Source of the DNA: Chloroflexota bacterium
Lineage (GTDB): Bacteria; Chloroflexota; Anaerolineae; Anaerolineales; Villigracilaceae
Assembly (NCBI GenBank): GCA_043823965.1
Contig: JBDRTP010000313.1
Location: 1 to 42,933 of the forward strand
Length of the DNA: 42,933 nt
Direction: 5' to 3'
Both the position numbers and the translations under genes were made by a program. The notes under the pieces are model-generated. The model did no database searches. It saw nothing but the letters and a program-made list of their open reading frames with translations, and was not told the origin of the DNA. How positions within the stretch are numbered: position 1 is the stretch's first letter; each line of letters starts with the position of its first letter. This document shows positions 5,214 to 42,933 of this stretch, in pieces.

Positions 5214-5236
5214 TACCCCCCCAGGGGGGTGGGGTA
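5214..5236 (+). promoter_or_regulatory. Candidate CsoR operator (G/C-tract pseudo-palindrome)
   Basis: TACCCCCCCAGGGGGGTGGGGTA lies just downstream of the -10 box. It resembles the TACCC...GGGTA-type operators described for CsoR regulators. Confidence 0.6.
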
Positions 5237-5246
5237 GGAGTGAGAG

Positions 5247-5516
5247 ATGAAAAACGAAGATACGTTGAAACGACTGAAGATCATCGAAGGCCATCTGAAA
5301 GGCGTCATCCGCATGGTGGAAGAGGATGCCTATTGCATTGACATCATCCGCCAGATCCAGGCGGTGGAGGCGGCGCTGAACAAGGTCAGCGGCGTGATAC
5401 TGGAAAGCCACCTGAATTCGTGCGTCATCACCGCTGTGCAGGGCGATGACCCCGCCGAGCGTAAGCGCGCGTTGAAAGAAGTGCTCGAAGTGTTTGAAAC
5501 CTCGGCGAAGGTCTAA
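5247..5516 (+). CDS. csoR: CsoR-family copper-sensing transcriptional repressor
   Basis: 89-aa DUF156-type protein: LKRLKIIEGHLKGVIRMVEEDAYCIDIIRQIQAV... and HLNSC supply the Cys-His-Cys ligand pattern. Adjacent to copZ and copA. Confidence 0.85.
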   Translation: MKNEDTLKRLKIIEGHLKGVIRMVEEDAYCIDIIRQIQAVEAALNKVSGVILESHLNSCVITAVQGDDPAERKRALKEVLEVFETSAKV

Positions 5517-5537: not shown

Positions 5538-5585
5538 CACGTTTGCACGTTTGCACGTTGCCAAGTTGCCAATCTACCAATCTAC
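5538..5585. repeat. Six-unit octamer tandem repeat
   Basis: CACGTTTG CACGTTTG CACGTTGC CAAGTTGC CAATCTAC CAATCTAC, lying between the csoR stop and the copZ Shine-Dalgarno. Confidence 0.9.
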
Positions 5586-5599
5586 TGAAGGAGAACCCC

Positions 5600-5806
5600 A
5601 TGACTACCGTTATTTATTCTGTTCCCAGCATTTCCTGCATGCACTGCGTCCATACCATCCAGAGCGAGGTGGGCGAGCTGACAGGCATCCAGTCCGTCAA
5701 GGCGGACGCGGCCAGCAAGAAGGTCGAAATCGTCTTCGACGCGCCGGCGAGCGAGGACAAAATCAAGGCGCTGTTGGCGCAGATCAATTACCCTGTCGCG
5801 GCGTAA
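5600..5806 (+). CDS. copZ: Copper chaperone CopZ (single HMA domain)
   Basis: ATG at 5600 is preceded by GAAGGAG. CxxC metal site SCMHC. The longer ORF-track start at 5531 lies inside the octamer repeat. Confidence 0.85.
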   Translation: MTTVIYSVPSISCMHCVHTIQSEVGELTGIQSVKADAASKKVEIVFDAPASEDKIKALLAQINYPVAA

Positions 5807-5842
5807 ATAATAGTTGAAAGTTAAAGGGCCTGCCCTGAGCTT

Positions 5843-5902
5843 GTCGAAGGGTTGAAGGTCAGACTGTTAGAATGATTGACCTTCGACTTTCGACCTTCAA
5901 CC
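5843..5902. repeat. Hairpin built from GACYTTC-type heptamers
   Basis: GTCGAAGGGTTGAAGGTCA (5843-5861) faces TGACCTTCGACTTTCGACCTTCAACC (5877-5902). Extra heptamers on the right arm allow slipped alternative pairings. Confidence 0.7.
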
Positions 5903-5927
5903 TGTACCCTTAGACCCGAAACTCAAA

Positions 5928-8420
5928 ATGACAGAAGCCAAACAATTAACCCTCCCCATCACCGGCATGACCTGCGCCAACTGCGTGGCGACCATCGAGC
6001 GCAGCCTGAAAAAACTGGATGGCGTGCAGACGGCTGCCGTCAATCTCTCGTCCGAGCGCGCCACGGTGGGCTTTGACCCGTCGCTGCTCGGACTCGGCGA
6101 ACTGGTCGCGCGTGTCGAGCGCGCCGGTTACGGCGTGGCCAGCGGCGAAGCGAATTTGATCATCAAACGTCTCGCGGATGACAACGACGCCCGCCGCCTG
6201 GAAAAGTCGCTGCTCAAACTGGAAGGCGTGCTGGAAGCCTCGGTCAGCGTCGCGACCGAGCGGGCACGCGTGCGCTACATCCCCACAGTGGTGAGTCAGG
6301 CCGAGATACGGCGGATAGTTTCGGGGTCCGGTTTCGAGGCGCTGGAACTGGGCGGGGAAGCCGAGGATGCCGAGGCAAAGGCGCGTGCGGCGGAAATCCG
6401 TCAGCAGAAGCATTTACTCGTCACCGGCATTTTATTTACCGTGCCGCTTTTTTTGCTCTCGATGAGCAGGGATTTTGGGCTGCTGCCGGCCTTTTTCTAT
6501 CTGCCGGTGCAGGCGATGAGCGGTATGCGCGAGGCGCAATGGTGGTTCAACTGGCTGCTACTGGCGCTGGCGCTGCCGGTGCAGTTTTACGTCGGCTGGC
6601 AGTATTACGTCGGCGCGTATAAGGCGCTGCGCAACGGCTCGGCCAATATGGACGTGCTGATTGCGATGGGTACCTCGGCCGCGTTTTTCTATTCCCTGCC
6701 AATCACCTTTGGGTTGCTGGCGGGACACGTCTATTTCGAGACTGCCGCGGTGATTATTACGCTGATCAAGCTGGGTAAATTCCTCGAAGCGCGCGCCAAA
6801 GGGCGCACCAGCGAAGCCATCAAGAAATTGATGGCTCTGCGCGCCAAAACTGCGCGCGTGGTGCGTGACGGCGCAGAACTCGAAGTGCCGGTCGAGGATG
6901 TCAAGGTCGGCGACGTGGTGGTTGTCCGCCCGGGCGAAATAATTCCAGTGGACGGCGTGGTGGTGGACGGGCGCTCGGCGGTGGACGAATCCATGCTGAC
7001 CGGCGAATCGCTGCCAGTGGAAAAGAAACCCGGCGACCCGCTCATCGGCGCGACGCTCAACAAACTGGGTCTGCTCAAGCTCGAGGCCACCAAAGTTGGC
7101 AAAGAGACCGCCCTGGCGCAAATCGTGCGCCTGGTCGAGGAAGCGCAGGGCAGCAAAGCCCCCATCCAGAAACTGGCCGACCAGGTCTCGGCCACCTTCG
7201 TGCCGCTGGTTATTCTCATCGCGGCTCTCACGTTTGCCATCTGGTACTTCTTCGTTCCGCTGCCCGTCAATGCGGATGTCAGCCTGTTCACCCGCGCCCT
7301 GATCAACATGGTGGCCGTGCTGGTCATCGCCTGCCCGTGCGCCATGGGCCTGGCAACGCCGACCGCGGTCATGGTCGGCAGCGGCAAAGGCGCGGAGTTG
7401 GGGATTCTGTTTCGCAGCAGCGAAGCGTTGGAAAGAGCAGGCAAGGTCTCGATTGTTGTGCTGGATAAGACGGGGACGGTGACGAAGGGGCAGCCGGCGG
7501 TCACCGATATAGTGATCAGTGATCAGTATTCAGTGTTCAGTGGCACTGGTGACTGGAAACTGAACACTGAACACTTATTGCGTTTGGCCGCTTCCGTTGA
7601 AAAAGGTTCGGAACATCCCCTGGGCGAAGCCATCTGGGCCGAAGCCACGACCCGCGGCCTGCCGCTCGTCGAACCGGGCGGATTCAAGGCCGAGGCCGGG
7701 AACGGCGTCGAAGCTGAAGTAGAGGGTCACGCGGTTGTGGTGGGCAACCTGCGCATGATGGACGCCCGTCACTATCCGCTCAACGGTCTCGAAAAGGAAG
7801 TCGAACGCCTGCAATCCGAGGCCAAGACGGCCATGCTGGTGGCGGTGGACGGCGCGGTGCGCGGCGTGATTGCCGTGGCGGATACGGTCAAGGACGGCTC
7901 GAAGGAAGCCATTGACGAACTGCACCGCATGGGGCTGAAAGTCGCCATGATTACCGGCGACAATCGCAAGACCGCCGCGGCCATCGCGAAGCAAGTTGGG
8001 ATTGACATAGTTCTGGCTGAAGTATTGCCGGAAGGGAAAGCGGCGGAAGTCAAGCGTTTGCAGTCAGGCGTTGACAGGAATGTGGTTGCCATGGTTGGTG
8101 ACGGAGTGAATGACGCCCCGGCGCTGGCGCAAGCCGATGTTGGCATTGCGATTGGCACGGGAACAGATGTGGCCATGGCGGCTGCTCCGGTCACGCTCAT
8201 CAGCGGCGATTTGCGCGGCGTGGCGCGGGCGATTGCCCTCTCACGGCGCACGATGCGCACCATCAAGCAAAACCTGTTCTGGGCTTTTTTCTACAACGTG
8301 GTTTTGATACCGGCTGCGGCGATGGGATTGCTGAACCCGATGCTGGCGGCGGGTGCGATGGCGTTCAGCAGTGTGTTTGTGGTGAGTAATAGTTTGAGGT
8401 TGAGGCGAGCGAGGGTATAA
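5928..8420 (+). CDS. copA: Copper-translocating P1B-type ATPase CopA
   Basis: N-terminal HMA with GMTCANC, then a second HMA-like domain lacking CxxC. TGES, CPC, DKTGT and GDGVNDAP motifs are all present. Confidence 0.95.
7512..7574. repeat. Nine-unit heptamer array embedded in frame in copA
   Basis: GTGATCA GTGATCA GTATTCA GTGTTCA GTGGCAC TGGTGAC TGGAAAC TGAACAC TGAACAC (63 nt). The two halves are inverted relative to each other. It encodes [21 protein letters not shown] between DKTGT...VTDI and LLRLAAS. Confidence 0.9.
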
Positions 8421-16333: not shown

Positions 16334-16580
16334 GGCAAACCTGACATGTCTCACCCGCGCCGATGTCAATCATAACGTCCGCGGGGATGTGGGTCACGAT
16401 TGATCAGTCCCTTGCGGAGACACCTTCGGCAGGTTTTTGGGGAGAGAGGCAAACCTGACATGTCTCACCCGCGCTGTTGTCAACCATAACGTCCGCGTGG
16501 ACGTGGGTCATGATTAGTCAGTCCCTTGCGGAGACACACTTCGACAAGCTCAGTGCAACGCCTTCGGCAGTTTTTTGGGG
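16334..16580 (+). repeat. Tandem duplication of a ~110-bp inter-cassette unit
   Basis: Copy 1 is 16334-16442 and copy 2 is 16448-16580; copy 2 carries a ~23-bp insert. Each begins GGCAAACCTGACATGTCTCACCCGCGC and ends CCTTCGGCAGGTTTTTGGGG, and the ends are imperfectly inverted. Confidence 0.85.
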
Positions 16581-16587
16581 TGGGTGT

Positions 16588-16650
16588 GAGGGGACTCGCG
16601 CCTGCTTTGATGGACATGTCTCACCCGTTGATTTGTCTCGTTTGGTGAGG
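16588..16650 (+). repeat. Inter-cassette repeat, A-box copy 1 plus stem
   Basis: GAGGGGACTCGCGCCTGCTTTGATGGACATGTCTCACCCGTTG (16588-16630), followed by the CTCACC/GGTGAG stem. Confidence 0.85.
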
Positions 16651-16682
16651 TGAATCTACCTGTCTGGTTCGCTGGCGAGTGG

Positions 16683-17356: not shown

Positions 17357-17623
17357 GAGGGGACTCGCGCCTGTTTTGACGGACATGTCTCACCCATTGG
17401 TCTGTCCCGTTTGAGGGGATGGGCAAACCTGCCGAAGGTGTCTCGTGCGGCACTTGCATGAAGGATGAAGGCGGAAGGATGAAGGATGAAAGCGTGCGCG
17501 GGTATGGCAAACCTGGTCTCATGCAGCTCTCGTCCGCCCGTGGCGCATGCAAGGACAAGTATCCGCGCAAGTCAAGGTTTCGTGGACGTGTACCCGAAGG
17601 GTGGACACCTTTGGCAGGTTTTT
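17357..17623 (+). repeat. Inter-cassette repeat, full-length mosaic copy (A-box, stem, B-box, tail)
   Basis: A-box 17357-17399. B-box GGCAAACCTGGTCTCATGCAGCTCTCGTCCGCCCGTGGCGCATGC at 17506-17550. The tail ...GGTTTCGTGGACGTGTACCCGAAGGGTGGAC...CAGGTTTTT matches 21394-21449. Confidence 0.85.
17460..17494. repeat. Five-unit heptamer repeat inside the inter-cassette element
   Basis: GAAGGAT GAAGGCG GAAGGAT GAAGGAT GAAAGCG. Confidence 0.9.
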
Positions 17624-22530: not shown

Positions 22531-23934
22531 ATGTCGAAGAGAGTTGACCTTTCATCTTGCGGCCTTCCGCCTTCCGCCTTGCTTGTTGTCGGCGTCTCCG
22601 GCGGCGCGGATAGTCTTTGTCTGCTTCACGTGCTCCACTCAGCGGGTTATTCGCTCATCGCGGCGCATTTCAATCACAAACTGCGCCCTGAAGCCGGCGC
22701 GGACGCCGAAGCCGTGCGCAGCGTTGCAAAAAAGATGGACGTGCCATTCGTGACCGAATCTGCGGATGTGAAGGCGTACGCCGCACAGGAAGGTTTATCC
22801 GTCGAAGAAGCCGCCCGCACGCTGCGTTATCGTTTTCTATTTGCCGAGGCTCGCAAACAAAAAGCGCAGGCTGTGGCCGTCGGCCATACCGCCGACGACC
22901 AGGTGGAGACAGTATTGATGCACTTCATTCGCGGCGCGGGGTTGGCGGGTTTGAAAGGCATGACTCCGCACACGATTTTACCGGTCTTTGAGGCTGAAAT
23001 CCCGCTTGTGCGCCCGTTGCTTTCACTCTGGCGTGCAGATACCGAAACCTATTGCCGCGCGCACGGACTGGACTTTATCACCGACGCCTCCAACGCCGAC
23101 CAGACCTACTTCCGCAACCGCCTGCGCCACAGCCTGATCCCTGAACTCGAAAAATATAATCCCCGCTTCAAAGAAGCCCTGGTGCGCACGGCGGGGGCCT
23201 TGCAAGGCGATCATGCCGCGTTGCAGGAAATGCTGGATCGGGCCTGGAAGGATGTCTTCGCCGAGGTGGGAGATGGCTGGTTCGCCTTCGAGAAGTCCGG
23301 ACTGGCAAAACTCTCCCCCGGTTTACGGCGGGATCTCATCCGCCGGGCGGCTGAAGCACTGCGGCCCGACAGCCGGGATTTTGGGTTCGAGGCGCTGGAG
23401 CGGGCGGCGGCGTTTGCCGAGACTCCCGCCGGGAAACAGATTGATTTTATGAATGGATTGTACCTTTTTGCCGAAGGCGGAAGAATCTACATCGCCGCTT
23501 ACGAAGCTGACTTGCCCTCTGCTCAATTTCCGCAGGTGACTGCCTCCTGCCTGCTGCCGACTGGCGAATGTCTTGACTTGGGCAACGGCTGGATACTGTC
23601 CACTGAACACTGTCCACTGAACACTGCTGACTGGTCACTGAACACCGATCACTGGTCAGCGTGGCTGGATGCTGATACAACGGGGAGCAGGCTCCAGGTC
23701 CGGCCGCGCCGCGAGGCTGATCGCTTTCAACCGCTGGGCATGGACGGGCGGTCAGTCAAATTATCTGATTTCTTCGTCAACGTCAAACTGCCCAAGCGGG
23801 CGCGGGCAAAATGGCCGCTGGTCTGCGTGGGCGATGAAATTGCCTGGCTGGCGGGGTTTCGCATCGCGCACCTGTTCCGCATCACCGAAAAGACGAAGCG
23901 AGTTGTTCATCTTTCCCTGGTGAATAAAAAGTAA
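22531..23934 (+). CDS. tilS: tRNA(Ile)-lysidine synthetase TilS
   Basis: PP-loop VGVSGGADS, HFNHKLR, GHTADDQVETVLM, and a C-terminal RPRREADRFQPLGM..SVKLSDFFVN.KLP. The ATG at 22531 follows the mce stop; the track start at 22258 overlaps mce. Confidence 0.9.
   Translation: MSKRVDLSSCGLPPSALLVVGVSGGADSLCLLHVLHSAGYSLIAAHFNHKLRPEAGADAEAVRSVAKKMDVPFVTESADVKAYAAQEGLSVEEAARTLRYRFLFAEARKQKAQAVAVGHTADDQVETVLMHFIRGAGLAGLKGMTPHTILPVFEAEIPLVRPLLSLWRADTETYCRAHGLDFITDASNADQTYFRNRLRHSLIPELEKYNPRFKEALVRTAGALQGDHAALQEMLDRAWKDVFAEVGDGWFAFEKSGLAKLSPGLRRDLIRRAAEALRPDSRDFGFEALERAAAFAETPAGKQIDFMNGLYLFAEGGRIYIAAYEADLPSAQFPQVTASCLLPTGECLDLGNGWILSTEHCPLNTADWSLNTDHWSAWLDADTTGSRLQVRPRREADRFQPLGMDGRSVKLSDFFVNVKLPKRARAKWPLVCVGDEIAWLAGFRIAHLFRITEKTKRVVHLSLVNKK
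23596..23658. repeat. Nine-unit heptamer array embedded in frame in tilS
   Basis: CTGTCCA CTGAACA CTGTCCA CTGAACA CTGCTGA CTGGTCA CTGAACA CCGATCA CTGGTCA (63 nt), encoding LSTEHCPLNTADWSLNTDHWS. Confidence 0.9.
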
Positions 23935-32748: not shown

Positions 32749-33408
32749 TTGATGCACTCCATGAAACGACTCAGCTGGCTTTTTCCACTGCTCCTGGTTG
32801 TACTGGCGGCTTCTGCCTGCCAGTCCTACCGTATTGCGGACTGGCTGACCCAATCCGGGGAGGCGCTGTTTAAAGATGATTTTTCCGACCCGGGGAGCGG
32901 GTGGGCGCGGGCAGTTAGTCCCAGCGGCGCGATGGATTACTTCGGCGGGGGATTCCGCATCTGGGTGAACACGGAAAATTACGATTTCTGGTCCACGCCC
33001 GGCCTGGCTTTCGGCGACGTGCGCATCGAAACGGACGTGTACACGATCGGCGGCCCGCTCGAGAATCGCCTTGGTCTGCTCTGCCGCTACCGGGGCGCAG
33101 GCGACTATTATTTCTTCGTCATCAGCAGCGATGGCTATTATGGCATTGGCAAGATGAGCGGCGGCGTGCGCTCGCTGCTTGGGCAAGCCATGATGGCTTA
33201 TACCCCGGCCATCGCACAAGGCCTCGCCGCCAACCATTTGCGCGCCGATTGCGTCGGCGATACGCTGACGCTGTATGTCAACGGCCAGCCGGTCGGCATG
33301 GCGCAGGATGCCGATTTTAGCGATGGCGATGTCGGTCTGCTGGCCGGGACTTTTGGCCAACCCGGCACAGACGCGGTGTTTGATAATTTTGTAGTCATCA
33401 AACCGTGA
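32749..33408 (+). CDS. Putative lipoprotein with a ConA/LamG-like jelly-roll domain
   Basis: Lipobox LAASAC. The body (FKDDFSD..SGW, YYFFVISSDGYYGIGK, LTLYVNGQPV, FDNFVV) resembles DUF1080/LamG-type domains. Confidence 0.55.
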   Translation: MMHSMKRLSWLFPLLLVVLAASACQSYRIADWLTQSGEALFKDDFSDPGSGWARAVSPSGAMDYFGGGFRIWVNTENYDFWSTPGLAFGDVRIETDVYTIGGPLENRLGLLCRYRGAGDYYFFVISSDGYYGIGKMSGGVRSLLGQAMMAYTPAIAQGLAANHLRADCVGDTLTLYVNGQPVGMAQDADFSDGDVGLLAGTFGQPGTDAVFDNFVVIKP

Positions 33409-33447
33409 CGAGTGAAGTTTGACGTTTGACGAGTGATGAGTGATGAG
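33406..33447. repeat. Six-unit heptamer repeat spanning a stop codon and a start codon
   Basis: TGACGAG TGAAGTT TGACGTT TGACGAG TGATGAG TGATGAG. The first unit holds the lipoprotein stop (33406-33408) and the last units hold the mtaB GTG/ATG (33440/33443). Confidence 0.9.
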
Positions 33448-34789
33448 AATTTTCCTCGACTCCATCGGCTGCCGCCTCAATCAGGCTGAAATCGAAAGCA
33501 TGGCGCGCCAGTTTCGCGCTGCCGGGCACACGATCGTCGCCACAGCAGATGAAGCCGATCTGGCGGTGATCAATACCTGCACGGTGACCTCGCAGGCCGC
33601 CTCCGATTCGCGCGGCAAGATCCGCCAGGCGGCGCGCCTGGGTGCGGAAGGTATCCTGGTCACCGGTTGCTGGGCTACACTCGAACCGCAGGCCGCCGCA
33701 GCGCTGCCCGGCGTCTGCCGCGTCGTGCCGAATGACCGCAAAGATTCCCTCGTCGCCGACATCCTCAACCTGCAACCTTCAACCCTTCGTGCTGAGCCTC
33801 AGGGCGAAGCCTTTGACCTGGAACCTTTGACCCGTGTCCCGCTGCCCGGCCTGCGCCAGCGGACGCGGGCTTTTATCAAGGTGCAGGATGGCTGCGATAA
33901 TCACTGCACCTTCTGCATCACAGCCATCGCGCGTGGGGCAGGGCGTTCGCGACCTATCCCCGATGTGCTGGCCGACATCCGCGCCGCACTGGCGGGCGGG
34001 ACTAAAGAAATCGTGCTGACCGGCGTCCACCTGGGATCCTGGGGACAGGACCTTTCGACTTACCCTTCGGGCACGATGTCGCTCGGGGCAGGCCTCGGCC
34101 TGTGCCTGCGCGATCTGGTCAAAACAATTTTGAATGAAACGGACGCGCCGCGCCTGCGCCTCTCCTCGCTCGAACCCTGGGACCTCGACGCCGATTTCTT
34201 CGCCCTCTGGCAGGATTCCCGCCTCTGCCGCCACCTGCACCTGCCGCTCCAATCCGGCTGCGCTGGCGTTTTGCGGCGCATGGCGCGCAAGACGACACCC
34301 TCATCCTACGCCGCGTTGCTCGCCGCGGCGCGGGCGGCGATCCCGGATGTAGCCATCACAACGGATGTCATCGCCGGCTTCCCCGGCGAGAGCGGGGAGG
34401 AGTTCGCCGAAAGCCTGGAATTCGTCCGCTCGATGAACTTTTCTGGCGGGCATGTCTTCACCTATTCGGCGCGTCCCGGCACGGTGGCTGCGCGCATGAA
34501 AAGGCAGGTGCGGCACGAGGCGCGGAGGGAACGCAATGCCATTCTGCGGGCGGTGTTTGAAGAGATGGCCCTGGCGTATCGCCAGTGTTTTGTCGGCCAG
34601 ACGCTGCCCGTGCTGTGGGAGTCCACTTCTCGATATGGAGAGAACGGATTGATGGTGGAAGGCCTGACGGATAACTATCTGCGTGTCCGGGCCTATGCTC
34701 CCGAGCCGCGCTGGAACCAGGTGGATGCGGTCTGTCTGACCGGTTTGCAGGATGAAGGAATGACAGGGAAGTTGATAAATACGGTATAA
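33443..34789 (+). CDS. mtaB: Radical-SAM methylthiotransferase, MtaB-like
   Basis: UPF0004 N-domain (GCRLNQAE, INTCTVT), radical-SAM CDNHCTFC, and a TRAM-like C-terminus. Confidence 0.8.
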   Translation: MRIFLDSIGCRLNQAEIESMARQFRAAGHTIVATADEADLAVINTCTVTSQAASDSRGKIRQAARLGAEGILVTGCWATLEPQAAAALPGVCRVVPNDRKDSLVADILNLQPSTLRAEPQGEAFDLEPLTRVPLPGLRQRTRAFIKVQDGCDNHCTFCITAIARGAGRSRPIPDVLADIRAALAGGTKEIVLTGVHLGSWGQDLSTYPSGTMSLGAGLGLCLRDLVKTILNETDAPRLRLSSLEPWDLDADFFALWQDSRLCRHLHLPLQSGCAGVLRRMARKTTPSSYAALLAAARAAIPDVAITTDVIAGFPGESGEEFAESLEFVRSMNFSGGHVFTYSARPGTVAARMKRQVRHEARRERNAILRAVFEEMALAYRQCFVGQTLPVLWESTSRYGENGLMVEGLTDNYLRVRAYAPEPRWNQVDAVCLTGLQDEGMTGKLINTV

Positions 34790-35231: not shown

Positions 35232-36110
35232 ATGACTGCTCAATTAATTGACGGAAAACTGATTGCCCAGCAAGTACGCGATAACGTCGCGGCCGAAGTG
35301 GCCAAGCGCACGGCGGCTGGCAAACCCAGGCCCGGCCTGGCGACGGTGCTGGTCGGCGACCGCGTCGACTCGGCTACCTACGTGGCCTCCAAGCAAAAGG
35401 CCTGCCAGGAATTGGGCATGGATTCGTTCCACAACCAACTGCCCGGCGATGCCACGCAGGAGCAGGTCGAGGATTTGGTGAAACGCTTGAATGCCGACCC
35501 GAAGGTCAACGGCATACTGGTGCAGTTGCCCCTGCCCTCGCACCTGAATGAGGAGCGCGTCCTGCAATTGATCAACATCGAAAAAGACGTGGATGGCTTC
35601 TCGCCGATCAACATTGGGCGATTAGCGCAGAAGGGCCGCGAGCCGCTCTTCGTGCCATGCACGCCCTACGGCTGCATCTACCTGCTCGAGCAGGCAGGTG
35701 TGCAAATCGAGGGGGCGAACGCGGTGGTGCTGGGCCGCTCGAACATCGTCGGCATGCCGGCTGCACTGCTGCTGATTGGCAAGAATGCCACCGTGACGGT
35801 TTGCCACTCACGCACCAAGGACCTGCCCGGCGTCGTCCGCCAGGCGGATATTCTCATCGCCGCCATCGGCAAAATGGAAATGGTGCGCGGCGACTGGATC
35901 AAGCCCGGCGCGGCGGTGATCGACGTGGGCATCAACTCCAAGCCCGACCCGACCAAGAAAAGCGGCTACCGCCTGGTCGGCGATGTAAACTTCGACGAAG
36001 TTAAGGAAGTGGCCGGCTTCATTACCCCCGTCCCCGGCGGCGTCGGCCCGATGACGATCGCTATGTTGATGAGGAATACGCTGCGGGCGGCGCAGATACA
36101 GAACCCGTAG
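35232..36110 (+). CDS. folD: Bifunctional methylenetetrahydrofolate dehydrogenase/cyclohydrolase FolD
   Basis: LIDGK..A, GLATVLVGD..DS..YV..K.K, GILVQLPLP, VDGF, CTP.G, VVLGRSNIVG.P, PVPGGVGPMT. Confidence 0.95.
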   Translation: MTAQLIDGKLIAQQVRDNVAAEVAKRTAAGKPRPGLATVLVGDRVDSATYVASKQKACQELGMDSFHNQLPGDATQEQVEDLVKRLNADPKVNGILVQLPLPSHLNEERVLQLINIEKDVDGFSPINIGRLAQKGREPLFVPCTPYGCIYLLEQAGVQIEGANAVVLGRSNIVGMPAALLLIGKNATVTVCHSRTKDLPGVVRQADILIAAIGKMEMVRGDWIKPGAAVIDVGINSKPDPTKKSGYRLVGDVNFDEVKEVAGFITPVPGGVGPMTIAMLMRNTLRAAQIQNP

Positions 36111-36159
36111 TGATCAGTGATCAGTGTTCAGTATTCAGTTACCAGTAGCCAGTGAGCAG
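36111..36159. repeat. Seven-unit heptamer (TNNNCAG) tandem repeat, intergenic
   Basis: TGATCAG TGATCAG TGTTCAG TATTCAG TTACCAG TAGCCAG TGAGCAG, starting directly after the folD stop. Confidence 0.9.
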
Positions 36160-36187
36160 TCCCGTCGCGAGGCGGGACTGTCTGTTT
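36157..36187 (+). terminator. Intrinsic terminator after folD
   Basis: CAGTCCCG...CGGGACTG stem followed by TCTGTTT. Confidence 0.65.
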
Positions 36188-38980: not shown

Positions 38981-39005
38981 ATAAAAACCCCGCCGTGAGG
39001 CGGGG
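38981..39005 (-). terminator. Intrinsic terminator of the RRM gene
   Basis: On the minus strand, CCCCGCC-tcac-GGCGGGG followed by TTTTTAT. Confidence 0.7.
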
Positions 39006-39024
39006 TGGATCGGTCATTCCTTGC

Positions 39025-39303
39025 TCAATGGCTTGCGACCGGCTTGCCGCGCTCTTCCCTCGGTTTTGCCACATTGACCTTCAACTCGCGATCGGCCAAA
39101 GAATAAGCATTGAACATGCTGATCGCCTTCTCGGCTTCGCTTTGCTCACTCATCGTGATAAAGGCAAAGCCCTTGGACTCGCCGGTGATCCGGTCTTTAA
39201 TCACCTCAACCAGGGAAACTGCTCCGGCTTGCAAAAACAAGGTTTTCAGTTCGTCCTCAGTGGTTGACTTGGCCAGGTTTCCTACATATAACTTTACGTC
39301 CAT
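39025..39303 (-). CDS. RRM-type RNA-binding protein
   Basis: Start at 39303 (MDVKLYVGNL). RNP2 LYVGNL and RNP1 KGFAFITM. Confidence 0.9.
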   Translation of the reverse strand: MDVKLYVGNLAKSTTEDELKTLFLQAGAVSLVEVIKDRITGESKGFAFITMSEQSEAEKAISMFNAYSLADRELKVNVAKPREERGKPVASH

Positions 39304-39419
39304 TTTTAACTCTGCTCTCTCCGGCATTACCGGCAAAAGAAATGCCGCCAGCCCCATAACAGGGTCGGCGGCCAATACACCACACAAAACCAGTTATTCA
39401 ATTTTCAACTGTTACGCAT

Positions 39420-39428
39420 AGTATACCA
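39420..39428 (-). promoter_or_regulatory. Candidate extended -10 box (TGGTATACT) for the RRM gene, implying a ~110-nt leader
   Basis: The reverse complement of AGTATACCA at 39420-39428. Confidence 0.35.
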
Positions 39429-39467
39429 CAGTTCAAACCATCAAAGAAAAGCCAGTCCGAACAACAA

Positions 39468-39582
39468 CCCCCGCCGTAGACTCACCCCACAGTTGTGCTT
39501 CGCCCCTCGCGCGGACCCGCACCCCCGCCCTCCAGCGGACACAATCCCCCTCGTCGTGGACTCGTCTCACAGGCGTGCTTCG
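39468..39582. repeat. GC-rich P-family repeat, copy 1 (with internal sub-repeats)
   Basis: The core GGACCCGCACCCCCGCCCTCCAGCGGACACAATCCCC (39513-39549) matches 40776-40812 with 1 mismatch. The sub-repeat CCCCCGCCG.GGACTC....CAC.....GTGCTTC occurs at 39468-39501 and 39546-39581. Confidence 0.85.
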
Positions 39583-39626
39583 AGAAGGCCACGGATTAGA
39601 CGGCTTCAGTCGTCGGATTGGGTGAA

Positions 39627-39653
39627 TGAAAAATCCCGCCGTCAGGGCGGGAT
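39627..39653 (-). terminator. Intrinsic terminator of the hicAB operon
   Basis: On the minus strand, ATCCCGCC-ctgac-GGCGGGAT followed by TTTTTC. Confidence 0.7.
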
Positions 39654-39674
39654 TGAGAATTGACAGGTTTTTAG

Positions 39675-40025
39675 CTAGCTCGCAGGAACGTAAACATTTC
39701 TATGTGGGTTTGAGATTATTGTGTTTCTCTCAGCACGGTTACTCACAGTAAAAGTTTTGCTGATAGAAGTGCTCGTTGTCGCCAACTCTGCTGGGGCAGG
39801 CACAGACAAGCCATCTTGAAGGAGGCTTTCAACAAAATCAACCACCGCCAGACGCAAATCCTTTACAGCGGCTTCTGGCGTTTCGCCTTGGCCAAAACAG
39901 CCATCCAATTCCAGCACGTGTGCAAGATAAATTGGCTGGTCATCGGTAGTTTCATCGCGCGTTACTTTGATGAAATAGGGACGACTTGCCAGTTCTTGCG
40001 CCTGCTTGTTTAGTGTATCACTCAT
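39675..40025 (-). CDS. hicB: HicB-family antitoxin
   Basis: PIYLAHVLELDGCFGQGETPEAAVKDLRLAVVDFVESLLQDG is the HicB/UPF0150 core. A 4-nt overlap with hicA. Confidence 0.8.
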   Translation of the reverse strand: MSDTLNKQAQELASRPYFIKVTRDETTDDQPIYLAHVLELDGCFGQGETPEAAVKDLRLAVVDFVESLLQDGLSVPAPAELATTSTSISKTFTVSNRAERNTIISNPHRNVYVPAS

Positions 40026-40282
40026 GATCTGCCTTCTTTCTGTAATTCTAAAATCCTGTCTATTAATTTTACCGCAAATTCAACATATCCTTTGGCGAGT
40101 TCCCGATGTCTCGGTAATGTTGTGCGCAGTTCTGGATAATTTGGATGTTTCACAATATCATGGTTGCCGCCATGTGTAATGACAAACCCAAAACCTTCAT
40201 AAAGCTTATCAAGGTCAGCTCTTTTCCAATTGGACTTTGACCTGCGCATTTGTTCCAAGAGCTTCTCTGCTTTGGAGGGCAT
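40022..40282 (-). CDS. hicA: HicA-family mRNA interferase toxin
   Basis: 86 aa. W..ADLDKLYEGFGFVITHGGNHDIVKHP is YcfA/HicA-like (conserved G..GSH-type region). Confidence 0.75.
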   Translation of the reverse strand: MPSKAEKLLEQMRRSKSNWKRADLDKLYEGFGFVITHGGNHDIVKHPNYPELRTTLPRHRELAKGYVEFAVKLIDRILELQKEGRS

Positions 40283-40286
40283 GACG

Positions 40287-40703
40287 TTACTCTTGAGCAG
40301 AAATTGGTGCTTCGAGTTTGTTAGCGTAAAGGGTCAAATCCCCTTTGTGGTCTTTATCAACTAGAATGACAAATTGATAAATACCTGGCTTTGGAAAAAC
40401 GACATCCTTTAGGTCGAGAATGATGTTAACCTCAGGCTTTCTGCCTTTTTCGCCCTTAGGCACTTCAAATTGCCCTGAAATGTCCATGATGGAATTACCA
40501 TCGGCATCCAGTAGTTTGACCGTGAAATCTCGGATTTGCCCATACTCGCCGAGCTCTGCGCCGAGTTTGGCAACCAAGTGCATGGACGGATGCCTGGCTG
40601 GGAAACTGAACGCGTTAATATCGTTGAATATCCCCATCACATTCAGTTTTCCATCGCCAGTGATGTTTGCATAATCAGCGGCTAAAAGAAGCAGTTGTTT
40701 CAT
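40287..40703 (-). CDS. Hypothetical protein, first gene of the hicAB operon
   Basis: 138-aa ORF preceded by GGAGG and a TATAAT (reverse complement of 40741-40746). It ends 4 nt before the hicA start. The N-terminus LLLAADYANITGDGKLNVMGIF recalls an uncharacterised family (possibly DUF6941; uncertain). Confidence 0.55.
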   Translation of the reverse strand: MKQLLLLAADYANITGDGKLNVMGIFNDINAFSFPARHPSMHLVAKLGAELGEYGQIRDFTVKLLDADGNSIMDISGQFEVPKGEKGRKPEVNIILDLKDVVFPKPGIYQFVILVDKDHKGDLTLYANKLEAPISAQE

Positions 40704-40763
40704 AAATCATTCCTCCGTTTATGCCTTCATGGGCAAATCTATTATAGCAGGTTCTCGTTTGCT

Positions 40764-40841
40764 CCCCCCGCCGTGGACCCGCACCCCCGCCATCCAGCGG
40801 ACACAATCCCCCCGCCGCGGACTCGCACCACGCGTGCTTCA
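40764..40841. repeat. GC-rich P-family repeat, copy 2
   Basis: CCCCCCGCCGTGGACCCGCACCCCCGCCATCCAGCGGACACAATCCCCCCGCCGCGGACTCGCACCACGCGTGCTTC. Confidence 0.85.
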
Positions 40842-40854
40842 GCCGTCTTCGTAA

Positions 40855-40883
40855 AATAGAAAAACCCCGCTGTGAGGCGGGAT
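40855..40883 (-). terminator. Probable terminator of the three-gene operon
   Basis: On the minus strand, CCCGC-ctcaca-GCGGG followed by GTTTTTCTATTTT. Confidence 0.5.
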
Positions 40884-40909
40884 TTTGTAAACATCAATTT
40901 TAGCGAAAA

Positions 40910-41305
40910 CTAATGACTATGTGCTATTTCATCAAGGTATTGGAAGATAATCTTTGCCATGCTAATTGCATAGGTAGCGATGTTTTCAGGTTTTTGTTTT
41001 AACAGATCGTCGTAATCAACTTGCCGACGAAAATCATAAAGACGATCTAATTGGGTGGCAATCTTTCTTCTCCTCTGGTCTACAGGCGCAGAGTTACGGA
41101 AATATTCTCTAATTTTTCTATGATCGTCACCCGTAAAAGTTGGGCTAAACTTCTCGGCTCTTCCAAACTGAAAGGCTACTTGAAAGGCAGCATAATATGC
41201 CCGACTCGTTGCCGCACGAAGTGCAGCCTCTGTAGGGCCAGGCATATTTGGATTTGCTGAAAGTCCTTCAGCAAGTGTCAGGTAGTCTTTCCAGTTAAAA
41301 CTCAT
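40910..41305 (-). CDS. HEPN-like small protein (third gene of an AT-rich operon)
   Basis: 131 aa. W.DYLTLAEGL...ALRAATSRAYYAAFQ and LDRLYDFRRQVDYDD resemble a minimal HEPN domain with an R-x4-Y/H-type motif. Eye-level similarity only. Confidence 0.5.
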   Translation of the reverse strand: MSFNWKDYLTLAEGLSANPNMPGPTEAALRAATSRAYYAAFQVAFQFGRAEKFSPTFTGDDHRKIREYFRNSAPVDQRRRKIATQLDRLYDFRRQVDYDDLLKQKPENIATYAISMAKIIFQYLDEIAHSH

Positions 41306-41949
41306 ACAGATTCAAGACTGAAGTTTAATAAATCTCCGACCCAATTAACTTGCTTTAGAAACCACGCCTCGTCGAAAGCATCAAGGGAGGCCAATGCCTC
41401 CGATGGAGATAGTTTAGTCGAAACATAAGCAAAAAGCTTTTTAGAATTTGAACTTTCTAAATCTGAAACTAATTCCATCGCAATTTCTGTCGCACCAAAG
41501 AAATTTTCAAGCACTTCTTTGGCCTCAAAAAGTAGTTGCATCAAGTTAGGATGCTTTACTAGAAATGCTTTCACTTCAAGCGCGTTCCTCAATGTATACA
41601 TTGTTTCAACTCTCGCAATTTTTGCGCTTTGAATTACCTCACGCATAAATTTATCTTGCTCTAGTGGATTGCCATGTGGTTCTTGGTATCGGTGAACCCA
41701 ATTCCTTATCCAATGAACATGAATCCATTCATCAAGATTCCCCCAAGTTAAAGTGTCTTTGCCCTTCCAGCGATATGCAAATGTTTGGTGATAAGTCTCA
41801 TTCCAAACAGAAGCACCTAAGACATCCACAATCTTATTTTCTATATTTGATAGGCCAGTTGCCTGCTTTGGAATCGAAAAGTCTGCCCCAATATTTTGTC
41901 TGAAGACGTCCCATCCGGTGAATTGTGTAGAGAGGTTAGGATTTAGCAT
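41302..41949 (-). CDS. Hypothetical protein (second gene of the operon)
   Basis: 215-aa ORF whose stop overlaps the HEPN-like gene start (ATGA). Trp-rich N-half, and an acidic helical C-half ending DAFDEAWFLKQ. I recognise no family. Confidence 0.55.
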   Translation of the reverse strand: MLNPNLSTQFTGWDVFRQNIGADFSIPKQATGLSNIENKIVDVLGASVWNETYHQTFAYRWKGKDTLTWGNLDEWIHVHWIRNWVHRYQEPHGNPLEQDKFMREVIQSAKIARVETMYTLRNALEVKAFLVKHPNLMQLLFEAKEVLENFFGATEIAMELVSDLESSNSKKLFAYVSTKLSPSEALASLDAFDEAWFLKQVNWVGDLLNFSLESV

Positions 41950-41962
41950 GGCACTCGTATGG

Positions 41963-42598
41963 TTAGGAAGTCAGGAATCTCATTAATGTGGATGTAAGGC
42001 GCTCAAATTGCTGCATATAAGAGCGTTTTAAACCATCTGAGTCAGGTAAACTTAAACCTTTGGATTCAAAATGTGAATTCAAATGAACTTTCATGTGTTG
42101 ATCGTCGAGCGGTTCGAAAATGATGTCGTAACGAATATCCTCAGATTGAAAAACCAGGCGTGGCATAAAAGAGATTAACTTCCCACATAACTCTGCCTCA
42201 ATTTGTGCTTGATCTTTTATGAACTTGTTATTTAAAACCTCTTGGGCAGTGTTTTCATCAAAGCGGACACTTACATCAAAGTTATATCCATATGCAATCA
42301 GTACTGATTTTTCTGGTGGAAGGAGTTCGTTTACCTTTATGGCATATTCCCACAAAGGAAACTCACCCAATTCAGGTGTTTCAATAGGTAAATTAATACG
42401 AATCCGCCTGTCGCCAACCTGAACAAACCATGGATTGGGAGGATAAACCGCAACAATCATTTCAGGAGTGTCCATAATTGTGGGTTGGGAATCAACTGCT
42501 AAATTTCTGAGTTTGTTTCTGTCTATTGTTTGGAGATCTAGGGCGTCGTATACAATCGTTATGTTTCGCCCAATGACAGCCTCTAGTTGAGGAGACAC
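41963..42598 (-). CDS. Hypothetical protein (first gene of the operon)
   Basis: 211-aa ORF with a GTG start preceded by AAGAGGTGA and a TGTATAAT box. I recognise no family. Confidence 0.55.
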   Translation of the reverse strand: MSPQLEAVIGRNITIVYDALDLQTIDRNKLRNLAVDSQPTIMDTPEMIVAVYPPNPWFVQVGDRRIRINLPIETPELGEFPLWEYAIKVNELLPPEKSVLIAYGYNFDVSVRFDENTAQEVLNNKFIKDQAQIEAELCGKLISFMPRLVFQSEDIRYDIIFEPLDDQHMKVHLNSHFESKGLSLPDSDGLKRSYMQQFERLTSTLMRFLTS

Positions 42599-42635
42599 AA
42601 ATCACCTCTTTATTTCTTATTATGGATATGACACA

Positions 42636-42643
42636 ATTATACA
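42636..42643 (-). promoter_or_regulatory. Extended -10 box TGTATAAT for the three-gene operon
   Basis: The reverse complement of ATTATACA at 42636-42643, about 38 nt upstream of the GTG start. Confidence 0.5.
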
Positions 42644-42703
42644 ACAATAAACAATATTATTGCGATTATTTTCAATGGTTCTTTGGGAGTTGCCGTGATT
42701 CTG

Positions 42704-42730
42704 TACACGGATTGCACGGATTACATGGAT
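42704..42730. repeat. Three-unit 9-mer tandem repeat
   Basis: TACACGGAT TGCACGGAT TACATGGAT. An inverted partner AAATCCGTG lies at 42767-42775. Confidence 0.85.
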
Positions 42731-42933
42731 TTTCACCGAGTAGGCCTTCGGCAGAAAAATCCCTAAAAATCCGTGTTTTTTCCGTGCTTGTCCGGTGCGC
42801 CAGGATAAGCCTGGCTGTTCTAGTAAGTTGAAAGGTACTTGCCATGTGAATTTCTCGTAACACATGTAGTCGACCGAGCGCAGGATGGAGTAATCCATTT
42901 CAGCGAAGCCTTGGAAGACAAAGACGCAAGCCG

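Follow-up and report, generated by a model that had tools for sequence, protein, structure and literature searches.

In a 42,933-nt stretch of genomic DNA from a Chloroflexota bacterium of the Anaerolineales (assembly GCA_043823965.1, contig JBDRTP010000313.1, positions 1 to 42,933; hereafter the window), the copper-ATPase gene copA contains a 63-nt block of nine tandem heptamers (7512–7574, forward strand) that is translated in frame as residues V529–H549. With somewhat better than even confidence, we interpret this block as a translated heptanucleotide microsatellite that is tolerated in a permissive loop of the protein and whose sequence is itself under constraint. A preliminary description, made from the DNA sequence alone, had already reported the block, and its coordinates, unit count, orientation and peptide all proved right.

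The host gene (5928–8420, forward strand) encodes an 830-residue P1B-type Cu+-ATPase, CopA. Two HMA domains, an E1-E2_ATPase and a Hydrolase domain were recognized by Pfam, the motifs GMTCANC (residue 13), CPC (469), DKTGT (513), SEHP (561) and GDGVND (724) are present, and the protein matches the CopA structures of Archaeoglobus fulgidus at E = 5e-55. The nearest homologs come from uncultured Anaerolineales and Chloroflexota, and the window protein itself was recovered as P0001 and P0241 in a search of our protein collection. The array occupies codons 529–549 of the 830 codons and reads GTGATCA, GTGATCA, GTATTCA, GTGTTCA, GTGGCAC, TGGTGAC, TGGAAAC, TGAACAC, TGAACAC. In another register it consists of four NNNCAGT units, a central GGC and four ACTGNNN units, with CAGT cores at 7517, 7524, 7531 and 7538 and ACTG cores at 7545, 7552, 7559 and 7566, and its two halves are mutual reverse complements. 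The left arm (7512–7541, forward strand; GATCAGT, GATCAGT, ATTCAGT, GTTCAGT) codes for ISDQYSVFS, while the right arm (7545–7574, forward strand; ACTGGTG, ACTGGAA, ACTGAAC, ACTGAAC) is its inverted complement. At the protein level, one arm follows the heptapeptide pattern S-D-Q-x-S-V-x and the other W-x-L-N-T-[DE]-x. Because a 7-nt period cycles through the three frames, an uninterrupted series of GATCAGT units would have TGA in each of them; the copA array has TAT at the critical codon and reads SDQYSVF.

Tandem Repeats Finder called a period of 7 for the block, and its nine units qualify it as a tandem heptamer repeat (at least three copies, beyond chance). When at most one mismatch was allowed, the pattern (CAGTNNN)x3CAGT matched the window 16 times, all within three arrays (copA, 23588–23654 and 36108–36160), and never in 100 dinucleotide-preserving shuffles, which rules out a chance origin. 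An assembly artefact is also ruled out, as the array is present in independent NCBI, JGI, ENA and Logan assemblies. The preliminary description had further noted that the block can form a hairpin, in good agreement with the folding calculations. RNA of positions 7506–7580 was predicted to fold into a single hairpin of −31.2 kcal/mol (z = −5.17; none of 200 shuffles was as good), and DNA folding of the array gave −16.3 kcal/mol (z = −4.5). The predicted structure (about 7506–7580, forward strand) consists of blocks of 4–6 bp around the CAGU/ACUG cores, separated by mismatches of 1–2 nt every 7 nt, with GGC as the loop. In silico, the hairpin of the copA array is thus real.

The array lies in the first loop of the nucleotide-binding domain (N-domain) of CopA, between the strand ending in PAVTDIV and the helix LLRLAASxE. 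This short loop had been proposed to be variable, and both the alignment with the A. fulgidus enzyme and the spacing among orthologs bear this out. In the alignment with the Protein Data Bank structures 7r0g, 3j09 and 3a1c, eight residues (PLNGDERE) stand opposite a 20-residue segment of the window protein. We surveyed the distance from DKTGT to SEHP in 120 homologs of 78–100% identity: it was 41 residues in 29 sequences, 42 in 5, 43 in 40, 44 in 4, 50–52 in 27 and 54–71 in 15, and no sequence had a spacing of 45–49. The window protein has 52. More distant CopA proteins (50–60% identity) mostly have 40–45, and the range across ~200 orthologs is 40–79 residues. The window spacing exceeds the short classes by 9–11 residues and the archaeal enzyme by 12, and the loop comprises 20 residues versus 8–13 in array-free relatives; orthologs lacking the heptamers (41–43 residues against 52) accordingly carry no segment of equivalent length. 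The block does encode 21 residues, as first described, but since the spacing is only 9–12 residues longer, the array replaces the native loop in part, with a net gain of 9–12 residues and not of 21. Modelling of the N-domain had been suggested as a test of loop exposure. The AlphaFold2 model, built from a shallow 44-sequence alignment and with a mean predicted local distance difference test (pLDDT) score of 61.5, places residues 531–546 in a coil (pLDDT below 50 at 535–542) between a strand at 519–530 and a helix at 547–558.

Across relatives, this first N-domain loop is a recurrent hot spot for unrelated heptamer families, often arranged as inverted halves. The CAGT/ACTG family of the window occurs at the same site in the loci L074, L205, L204, L207, L001, L003 and L208–L211. 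Elsewhere, the loop holds (GAGAGTN)x4 followed by (TCTCTNN)x4 (L203 and L004, the former 88% identical to the window in nucleotides outside the loop), (TGGACGA)x4 in direct orientation only (L201, 84% identity), (AAGAGTN)x4–5 followed by (TACTCAT)x4–5 (L010), (GATGGCN)x7 followed by (ATCNGCC)x7 (L020, −72 kcal/mol), a GGGT-type array followed by a CCCAT-type array (L012), two different families adjoining each other (L023, L026 and L047) or a GC-rich palindrome (L036). In a neighbour-joining tree built without the loop, loop types were intermixed and sister sequences carried unrelated loops, and clusters of at least 90% identity contained different loop types side by side. In one such cluster, P0253–P0258 versus P0257, P0259 and P0261 have loops of equal length, VVSDQFSVVSDQLSVLMTDD and VISDQSSVISTDHWTLTTDN; the first consists of CAGT-type peptides only and the second of a CAGT arm plus an ACTG arm, and judging by these peptides one arm may have been inverted or converted. 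The closest relative with available DNA, L204 (91% identity), carries a 48-nt insertion nested in a window-type array. This insert, CCTGCCCTGCCTGCCCTGGCGGACAGGCCAGGGAGCGAAGCCGAAGGGT (about 2790–2840 of L204), has a 9-nt duplication and an inverted repeat of its own.

The diversity of the loop bears on whether the peptide matters to the protein. The extra 9–12 residues could be a selected structural or regulatory extension of the N-domain, such as a beta-hairpin or an interaction surface, and such a role would fit a peptide that is identical in L074 and nearly so in L205 despite 12–19% amino acid divergence elsewhere, as well as a loop class (beginning ISx) that persists across relatives of 80–83% identity. 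We nevertheless regard it as very improbable. Close relatives, even those within the 90% clusters, have loops of radically different sequence, length and family; the same peptides occur in unrelated proteins (TilS, a kinase and UvrA) because the same DNA repeat is translated there; AlphaFold2 gives a low-confidence coil; and synonymous sites are conserved too, a pattern not accounted for by selection on the protein. The segment is most likely dispensable for CopA. Its loop would merely tolerate the array and act as a sink for such arrays, and because of this tolerance the same site would collect unrelated unit families in related lineages.

Length changes within genes come in steps of three units. 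L205 has the window array plus exactly GTCATCA, GTCATCA and GTTTTCA (21 nt, 7 residues), in the left arm only. The array of L206 has 16 CAGT units in one orientation with a super-period of 21 nt, so that SDQLSVS is read five times, and the array region of TilS orthologs falls into length classes of 80/81 (67 sequences), 87/88 (42) and 94 (3), i.e. steps of 7 and 14 residues. All in-gene changes that are plainly of whole heptamers thus amount to three units, and the proposed restriction of intragenic arrays to multiples of three units holds as far as the data allow. Copy number varies by whole units among relatives, as is characteristic of heptanucleotide repeats.

We infer that the 63 nt represent one copy of a CAGT-core heptanucleotide tandem repeat, which is translated here and consists of two short arrays in inverted orientation. 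It would change at the level of units, through slippage during replication, insertions nested within the array and the copying of one arm onto the other as its mirror image, with slippage and template switching as the probable mechanism. The gene would filter the outcomes. Only changes that keep the frame would survive, typically of three units (21 nt, 7 residues), and only unit variants without stop codons; this filtering would produce the heptapeptide patterns on both arms, and selection for frame and against stops would also account for the 21-nt periodicity and the heterogeneity of the units. The CAGT/ACTG cores would be held at the nucleotide level, and the rare codons kept, by whatever force maintains the arrays genome-wide.

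A unit length that is not a multiple of three, inside an open reading frame (ORF), could in principle make copA a phase-variable contingency locus that is switched by frameshift when a single heptamer is gained or lost. In Haemophilus influenzae, heptanucleotide repeats drive phase variation of hmw1A and hmw2A, though from the promoter/5′ untranslated region (5′-UTR), where they tune adhesin expression and where RNA structure and RNase III act (PMC8262952, PMC12721329). Those repeats resemble the copA array in being 7-nt tandem units whose copy number changes by slippage, but the copA repeat is translated in a housekeeping ATPase and shows no on/off variation. We found no out-of-frame allele among ~200 orthologs and cluster members, all of which read through the loop in frame; heterogeneous units suppress slippage; and the genes that host such arrays are housekeeping genes (copA, tilS, uvrA and tgt), not surface or restriction-modification genes. 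A phase switch is therefore scarcely credible here.

The palindromic layout is what would be expected of a miniature mobile element, moved by a transposase encoded elsewhere and inserted in frame, of the type of MITEs (miniature transposable elements with inverted repeats) or Rickettsia palindromic elements (RPEs). As summarized in PMC10969869, RPEs (Ogata 2000, 2002) are ~150 bp long, have consensus sequences for their families and show no 7-nt period internally. In that account they are likewise palindromic repeated DNA that lies in frame in unrelated housekeeping genes and is translated at positions compatible with the fold, and the copA array is indeed palindromic, in frame and at a structurally permissive position of a conserved protein. 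The discrete 48-nt insertion nested in the L204 array and the wholesale different modules that close relatives carry at the same site also speak for this explanation. Unlike the RPEs of that account, however, the copA array is no fixed element: the number, order and orientation of the units differ among the three CAGT arrays in the 43 kb of the window, which share neither consensus nor length, copy number varies by heptamers, and the arms change independently by whole units (L205). There was no target-site duplication at the borders of the copA array, whose flanks, ACCGATATA and TTATTGCGT, share no direct repeat, and neither a transposase nor a RAYT (REP-associated tyrosine transposase) gene was present among the Pfam-scanned ORFs of the window; no other sign of transposition was found. 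Hence, we consider a mobile element unlikely.

At the nucleotide level, the array is conserved beyond its peptide. In a comparison of the window with L074, L205, L207 and L001, 11 of the 15 array columns with an invariant amino acid were also invariant in codon, compared with 86 of 316 (27%) over the remainder of copA (Fisher p = 4e-4); no other stretch of 21 codons in the gene is as conserved at synonymous sites. For a second loop class (L003 and L208–L211), these numbers were 5 of 9 and 93 of 634 (p = 0.006), the invariant codons being AGT, CAG, ACT, CTG and GAT, which make up the CAGT/ACTG cores. In the array, L205 and L074 are 95–97% identical to the window in nucleotides, against 76–80% in the rest of the gene. 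Recombination is an unlikely cause of this high identity, as the identity to L205 falls again in the adjoining codons. Codons used in the array, namely AGT, TCA and ACT, are rare elsewhere in the window (7%, 10% and 10% of their families), and the G+C content at third codon positions is 0.52 in the array versus 0.74 in the rest of copA. These observations weigh against a merely tolerated repeat, since a purely neutral passenger does not predict conservation at synonymous sites, although the samples compared are small and phylogenetically related. Other points tell in the same direction. Slippage and template switching are deduced from end states, with no event observed directly; arrays may recur at one site because they are targeted there and not only because they are tolerated; and the AlphaFold2 model is weak, so that surface exposure of the loop rests mainly on its length variability.

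The conservation of synonymous sites and rare codons also speaks for a dual-coding element, in which selection would act on the array itself, either as a hairpin in RNA or as a series of regularly spaced sites for an RNA- or DNA-binding factor, and the peptide would be a by-product. Roles in mRNA processing or stability, in ribosome pausing at the boundary of the P-domain and N-domain, or at the level of DNA can be envisaged, and we hold this explanation to be possible, if only tentatively. Besides the conserved synonymous sites and rare codons, it is favoured by the position of the substitutions, four of five among the window, L074 and L205 being at unpaired positions of the hairpin, and by the invariance of the CAGT/ACTG cores next to variable 3-nt spacers. 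Moreover, the arms of other families at the copA site are mutually complementary (L203, L010, L020 and L012), a hairpin in the copZ–copA spacer keeps its stems, with four substitutions in the loop or outside the core stem, and similar arrays adjoin start and stop codons, as do the TAACTGA repeats, for which a role in translation has been proposed (MacGregor 2015, PMC4679880). On the other side, direct-only arrays (L206, L201), decayed hairpins (L207, −15 kcal/mol; L001, −18 kcal/mol) and plain short loops all occur in otherwise intact CopA, and the tilS array of the window does not fold significantly (z about −1.8). No covariation was found in the hairpin, in which the cores never vary and the 3-nt spacers vary without compensation. 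Rfam (gathering threshold) gave no match in the window, and no candidate binding factor was identified. Because direct-only arrays and decayed hairpins occupy the same site, without compensatory changes, the hairpin is not essential.

A more far-reaching proposal is that CAGT-core arrays in general are a widespread cis-element, recognized by some factor or by a dedicated copying mechanism and selected at the nucleotide level also where they are translated. On this view, the copies in copA and tilS would be dual-coding, and a specific process, not random slippage, would renew or replace the palindromic arrays at fixed sites. We regard this proposal as doubtful and retain the tolerated, sequence-constrained microsatellite as the preferred interpretation.

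The copA array is one of several in the window. The preliminary description listed the copA array and one near 36.1 kb, but not a second in-frame array inside tilS (ORF ending at 23934), which comprises about nine ACTGNNN units in direct orientation only (23589–23660, forward strand) and codes for WILSTEHCPLNTADWSLNTDHWS. It lies between the PP-loop domain and the TilS_C domain, and a weaker (NNNNCTG)x4 array is found upstream in the same gene (23540–23567). TilS orthologs typically have a CAGT arm (VSNQCSVISNQ) and an ACTG arm (PLNTEHCSLNTDNW) flanking ELGNGWVL. The 36.1-kb array was correctly described as an intergenic member of the same repeat family with seven units: seven NNNCAGT units span 36108–36160 (forward strand), and one TCAGTTA unit occurs in this array. 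It starts at the TAG that ends folD, and a terminator-like stem comes after it (36157–36180). Another array (33405–33452; GTGACGA, GTTTGAC, GTGATGA) continues into the beginning of a MiaB/RimO-like radical-SAM gene (33440–34789), start codon included.

In the window and 80 CopA loci together, we counted 46 arrays of period 7, compared with 0–10 for each of the periods 5, 6 and 8–11. Most of the period-7 arrays are intergenic or at gene ends; they overlap a stop codon, follow closely behind one or immediately precede a start codon. About 26–32% of the arrays have an inverted partner within 150 nt, versus ~2% in controls, so the palindromic layout of the copA copy is common to the class. Close relatives also differ in the family present at orthologous intergenic sites, as at the site upstream of cbiQ in L201 and L203. 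A scan for (TCAGTNN)x3TCAGT, with one genome per species, yielded at least 120 stretches in Acidobacteriota, Cyanobacteriota, Planctomycetota, Chloroflexota, Bacteroidota, Verrucomicrobiota, Parabeggiatoa and others, a taxonomic spread that is a sample and not a census. Among the matches listed (L081–L200), TCAGT-core arrays often begin with TAGT, so that the gene upstream takes its stop codon from the first unit, and many are followed by an inverted ACTGA array within 50–100 nt.

Frame-compatible copies inside essential-type genes had been called unusual, and copA turned out not to be the only one. Among 352 arrays in ~1.9 Mb of loci, 34 lie deep inside long ORFs, 24 of them in copA. In-frame arrays in other Pfam-confirmed genes were found in uvrA of an Acidobacteria member (L113, 2908–2959), in a Ser/Thr kinase domain of a Gemmataceae member, as an inverted pair reading MSVVSCQLSVV...LTTDNWQLTT (L135, 3691–3787), in tgt of an Acidobacteriaceae member (L147, 1944–1984), in a SpoU methylase gene of a Chloroflexota member (L134, 2480–2519) and in mazG of an Anaerolineales relative (L206, 6187–6252). 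A further one of these Pfam-confirmed cases lies in a transferase linker (L039). A protein search with a synthetic SDQLSVS-type repeat peptide returned five candidates and no match. A second, weaker hot spot within copA is the loop KKLQ[...]VVAMVGDG, where relatives carry in-frame arrays of CAATTAC, CACCCGT, ACGTCGC and other families (L008, 12133–12184; L074, 966–1007; L206, 12188–12231; L207, 4876–4921; L211, 3631–3665). The corresponding residues 711–720 of the window protein (8058–8087) contain no array.

The gene copA is the third gene of an operon, after csoR (5247–5516) and copZ (5600–5806), and this synteny is kept in relatives. The copZ–copA spacer holds an inverted heptamer pair, GTTGAAG/GTCGAAG and CTTCGAC/CTTCAAC (5810–5905, forward strand), predicted to form a hairpin just upstream of the copA start codon (−36.8 kcal/mol, z = −3.9), and a heptamer array at 5876–5910 adjoins that start codon. 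Compared with L204 the stems are kept, with one substitution in the outer left arm and three in the loop. The left arm is 24 nt longer in the window than in L204, and these extra 24 nt have CCTGCCCTG and CGAAGGGT in common with the 48-nt insert in the copA loop of L204. No obvious Shine-Dalgarno sequence was seen upstream of copA. In the csoR–copZ spacer there are three short arrays of period 8 (CACGTTTG, GTTGCCAA and CCAATCTA; 5538–5585), and just upstream of csoR lies a GC-rich pseudo-palindrome, TACCCCCCCAGGGGGGTGGGGTA (5214–5236), in which we presume a resemblance to CsoR operator sites (putative).

The copA array belongs with known repeat classes, namely short tandemly repeated repetitive (STRR) sequences, TAACTGA repeats and RPEs, as a variant of them. 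Heptanucleotide repeats have been known in bacteria since 1990 in the form of STRR sequences, which Mazel and colleagues reportedly described in that year from heterocystous cyanobacteria with the units CCCCAGT, TTGGTCA and CAACAGT. The likeness to these sequences that the preliminary description had drawn extends to the tandem 7-nt units, the many dispersed and mostly intergenic arrays per genome, and the CAGT core present in two of the three classic units. Here, however, the host is a member of the Anaerolineales, with its homologs in Anaerolineales and Chloroflexota, so the copA array is not an STRR sequence in the strict cyanobacterial sense. Its units are RWTCAGT-like (GATCAGT, GTTCAGT and ATTCAGT) with variable 3-nt spacers, and the copA copy is translated, forms an inverted pair and occupies an orthologous hot spot in a conserved enzyme.

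The TAACTGA direct repeats of Beggiatoaceae, Cyanobacteria and Bacteroidetes have a uniform unit in 2–6 copies and lie mostly directly upstream of start codons, with one inverted example reported and with cases inside ORFs mostly in hypothetical proteins or at protein ends (MacGregor 2015, PMC4679880). They share the TCAGT/ACTGA core with the copA array. In both, one orientation has stops in all frames and the reverse encodes a heptapeptide (LSVISYQ there, SDQYSVF here), and other arrays of the window also adjoin start or stop codons. The copA array differs in containing no TCAGTTA unit, having only the TCAGT core in common with those repeats, and in its position away from a start codon: it is an inverted pair placed centrally in a conserved domain, and its site bears arrays of other unit families in further orthologs. 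Among the matches listed, the TCAGT arrays also extend beyond the TAACTGA taxa to Acidobacteriota, Planctomycetota, Chloroflexota and Verrucomicrobiota.

A survey of long simple sequence repeats of 5–11 nt (Mrazek et al. 2007), as summarized in PMC4679880, found heptanucleotide repeats to be the most abundant, proposed polymerase slippage as their origin and noted that coding regions favour lengths that keep the frame. Abundance and frame-keeping agree with our results, while the summary of that survey describes no three-unit in-frame blocks, palindromic pairing or hot spots at orthologous loops. Repetitive extragenic palindromic (REP) sequences, bacterial interspersed mosaic elements (BIMEs) and REPINs (REP doublets forming hairpins) are also short hairpin-forming repeats between co-directional genes, often at gene 3′ ends. 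By definition, though, they lie outside genes, they do not consist of tandem heptamers and they are associated with RAYT transposases (PMC3116915); nothing of that kind was found here. In the literature, we found no description of heptamer arrays in Chloroflexota or Anaerolineae, of in-frame three-unit arrays at orthologous hot spots of conserved enzymes, of different unit families replacing one another at one site, or of synonymous-site conservation of heptamer arrays, and we therefore class the copA array as a variant not described before. The later surveys consulted give no function or spread mechanism for bacterial heptanucleotide repeats.

Two other regions of the window, whose overall G+C content is 55.5% and in which ARAGORN gave no match, drew attention. 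At 16334–16660, an element of ~114 nt occurs in two tandem copies (90% identical) and a partial third, each ending in a stem and a T run, and a related motif in inverted orientation is found near 17400–17450, adjoining an (ATGAAGG)x4.7 array (region 17400–17494). These elements had no Rfam match and the ORFs that overlap them no Pfam match; from their sequence, they may be tandem small-RNA genes. Positions 39000–42933 have a G+C content of 0.41–0.52, compared with 0.55–0.64 elsewhere in the window, and may be acquired DNA; of the two ORFs in this region (41302–41949 and 41963–42598), the first had no Pfam match.

The copA locus is a natural experiment: a heptamer repeat has to share its sequence with a reading frame, in an enzyme that is well understood and in many related lineages. 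It separates what the repeat needs (CAGT cores every 7 nt, conserved also at synonymous positions and at the cost of rare codons), what the protein needs (an open frame, no stops and a tolerant loop) and what mutation supplies (three-unit steps, mirror copies and nested insertions). Translated arrays account for the differences in length within CopA, TilS and further protein families of the Chloroflexota, and they put common motifs (SDQxSV and WxLNT[DE]) into unrelated proteins, by which homology searches can be misled. Should the synonymous constraint be confirmed, such arrays would exemplify overlapping nucleic-acid and protein codes in bacteria.

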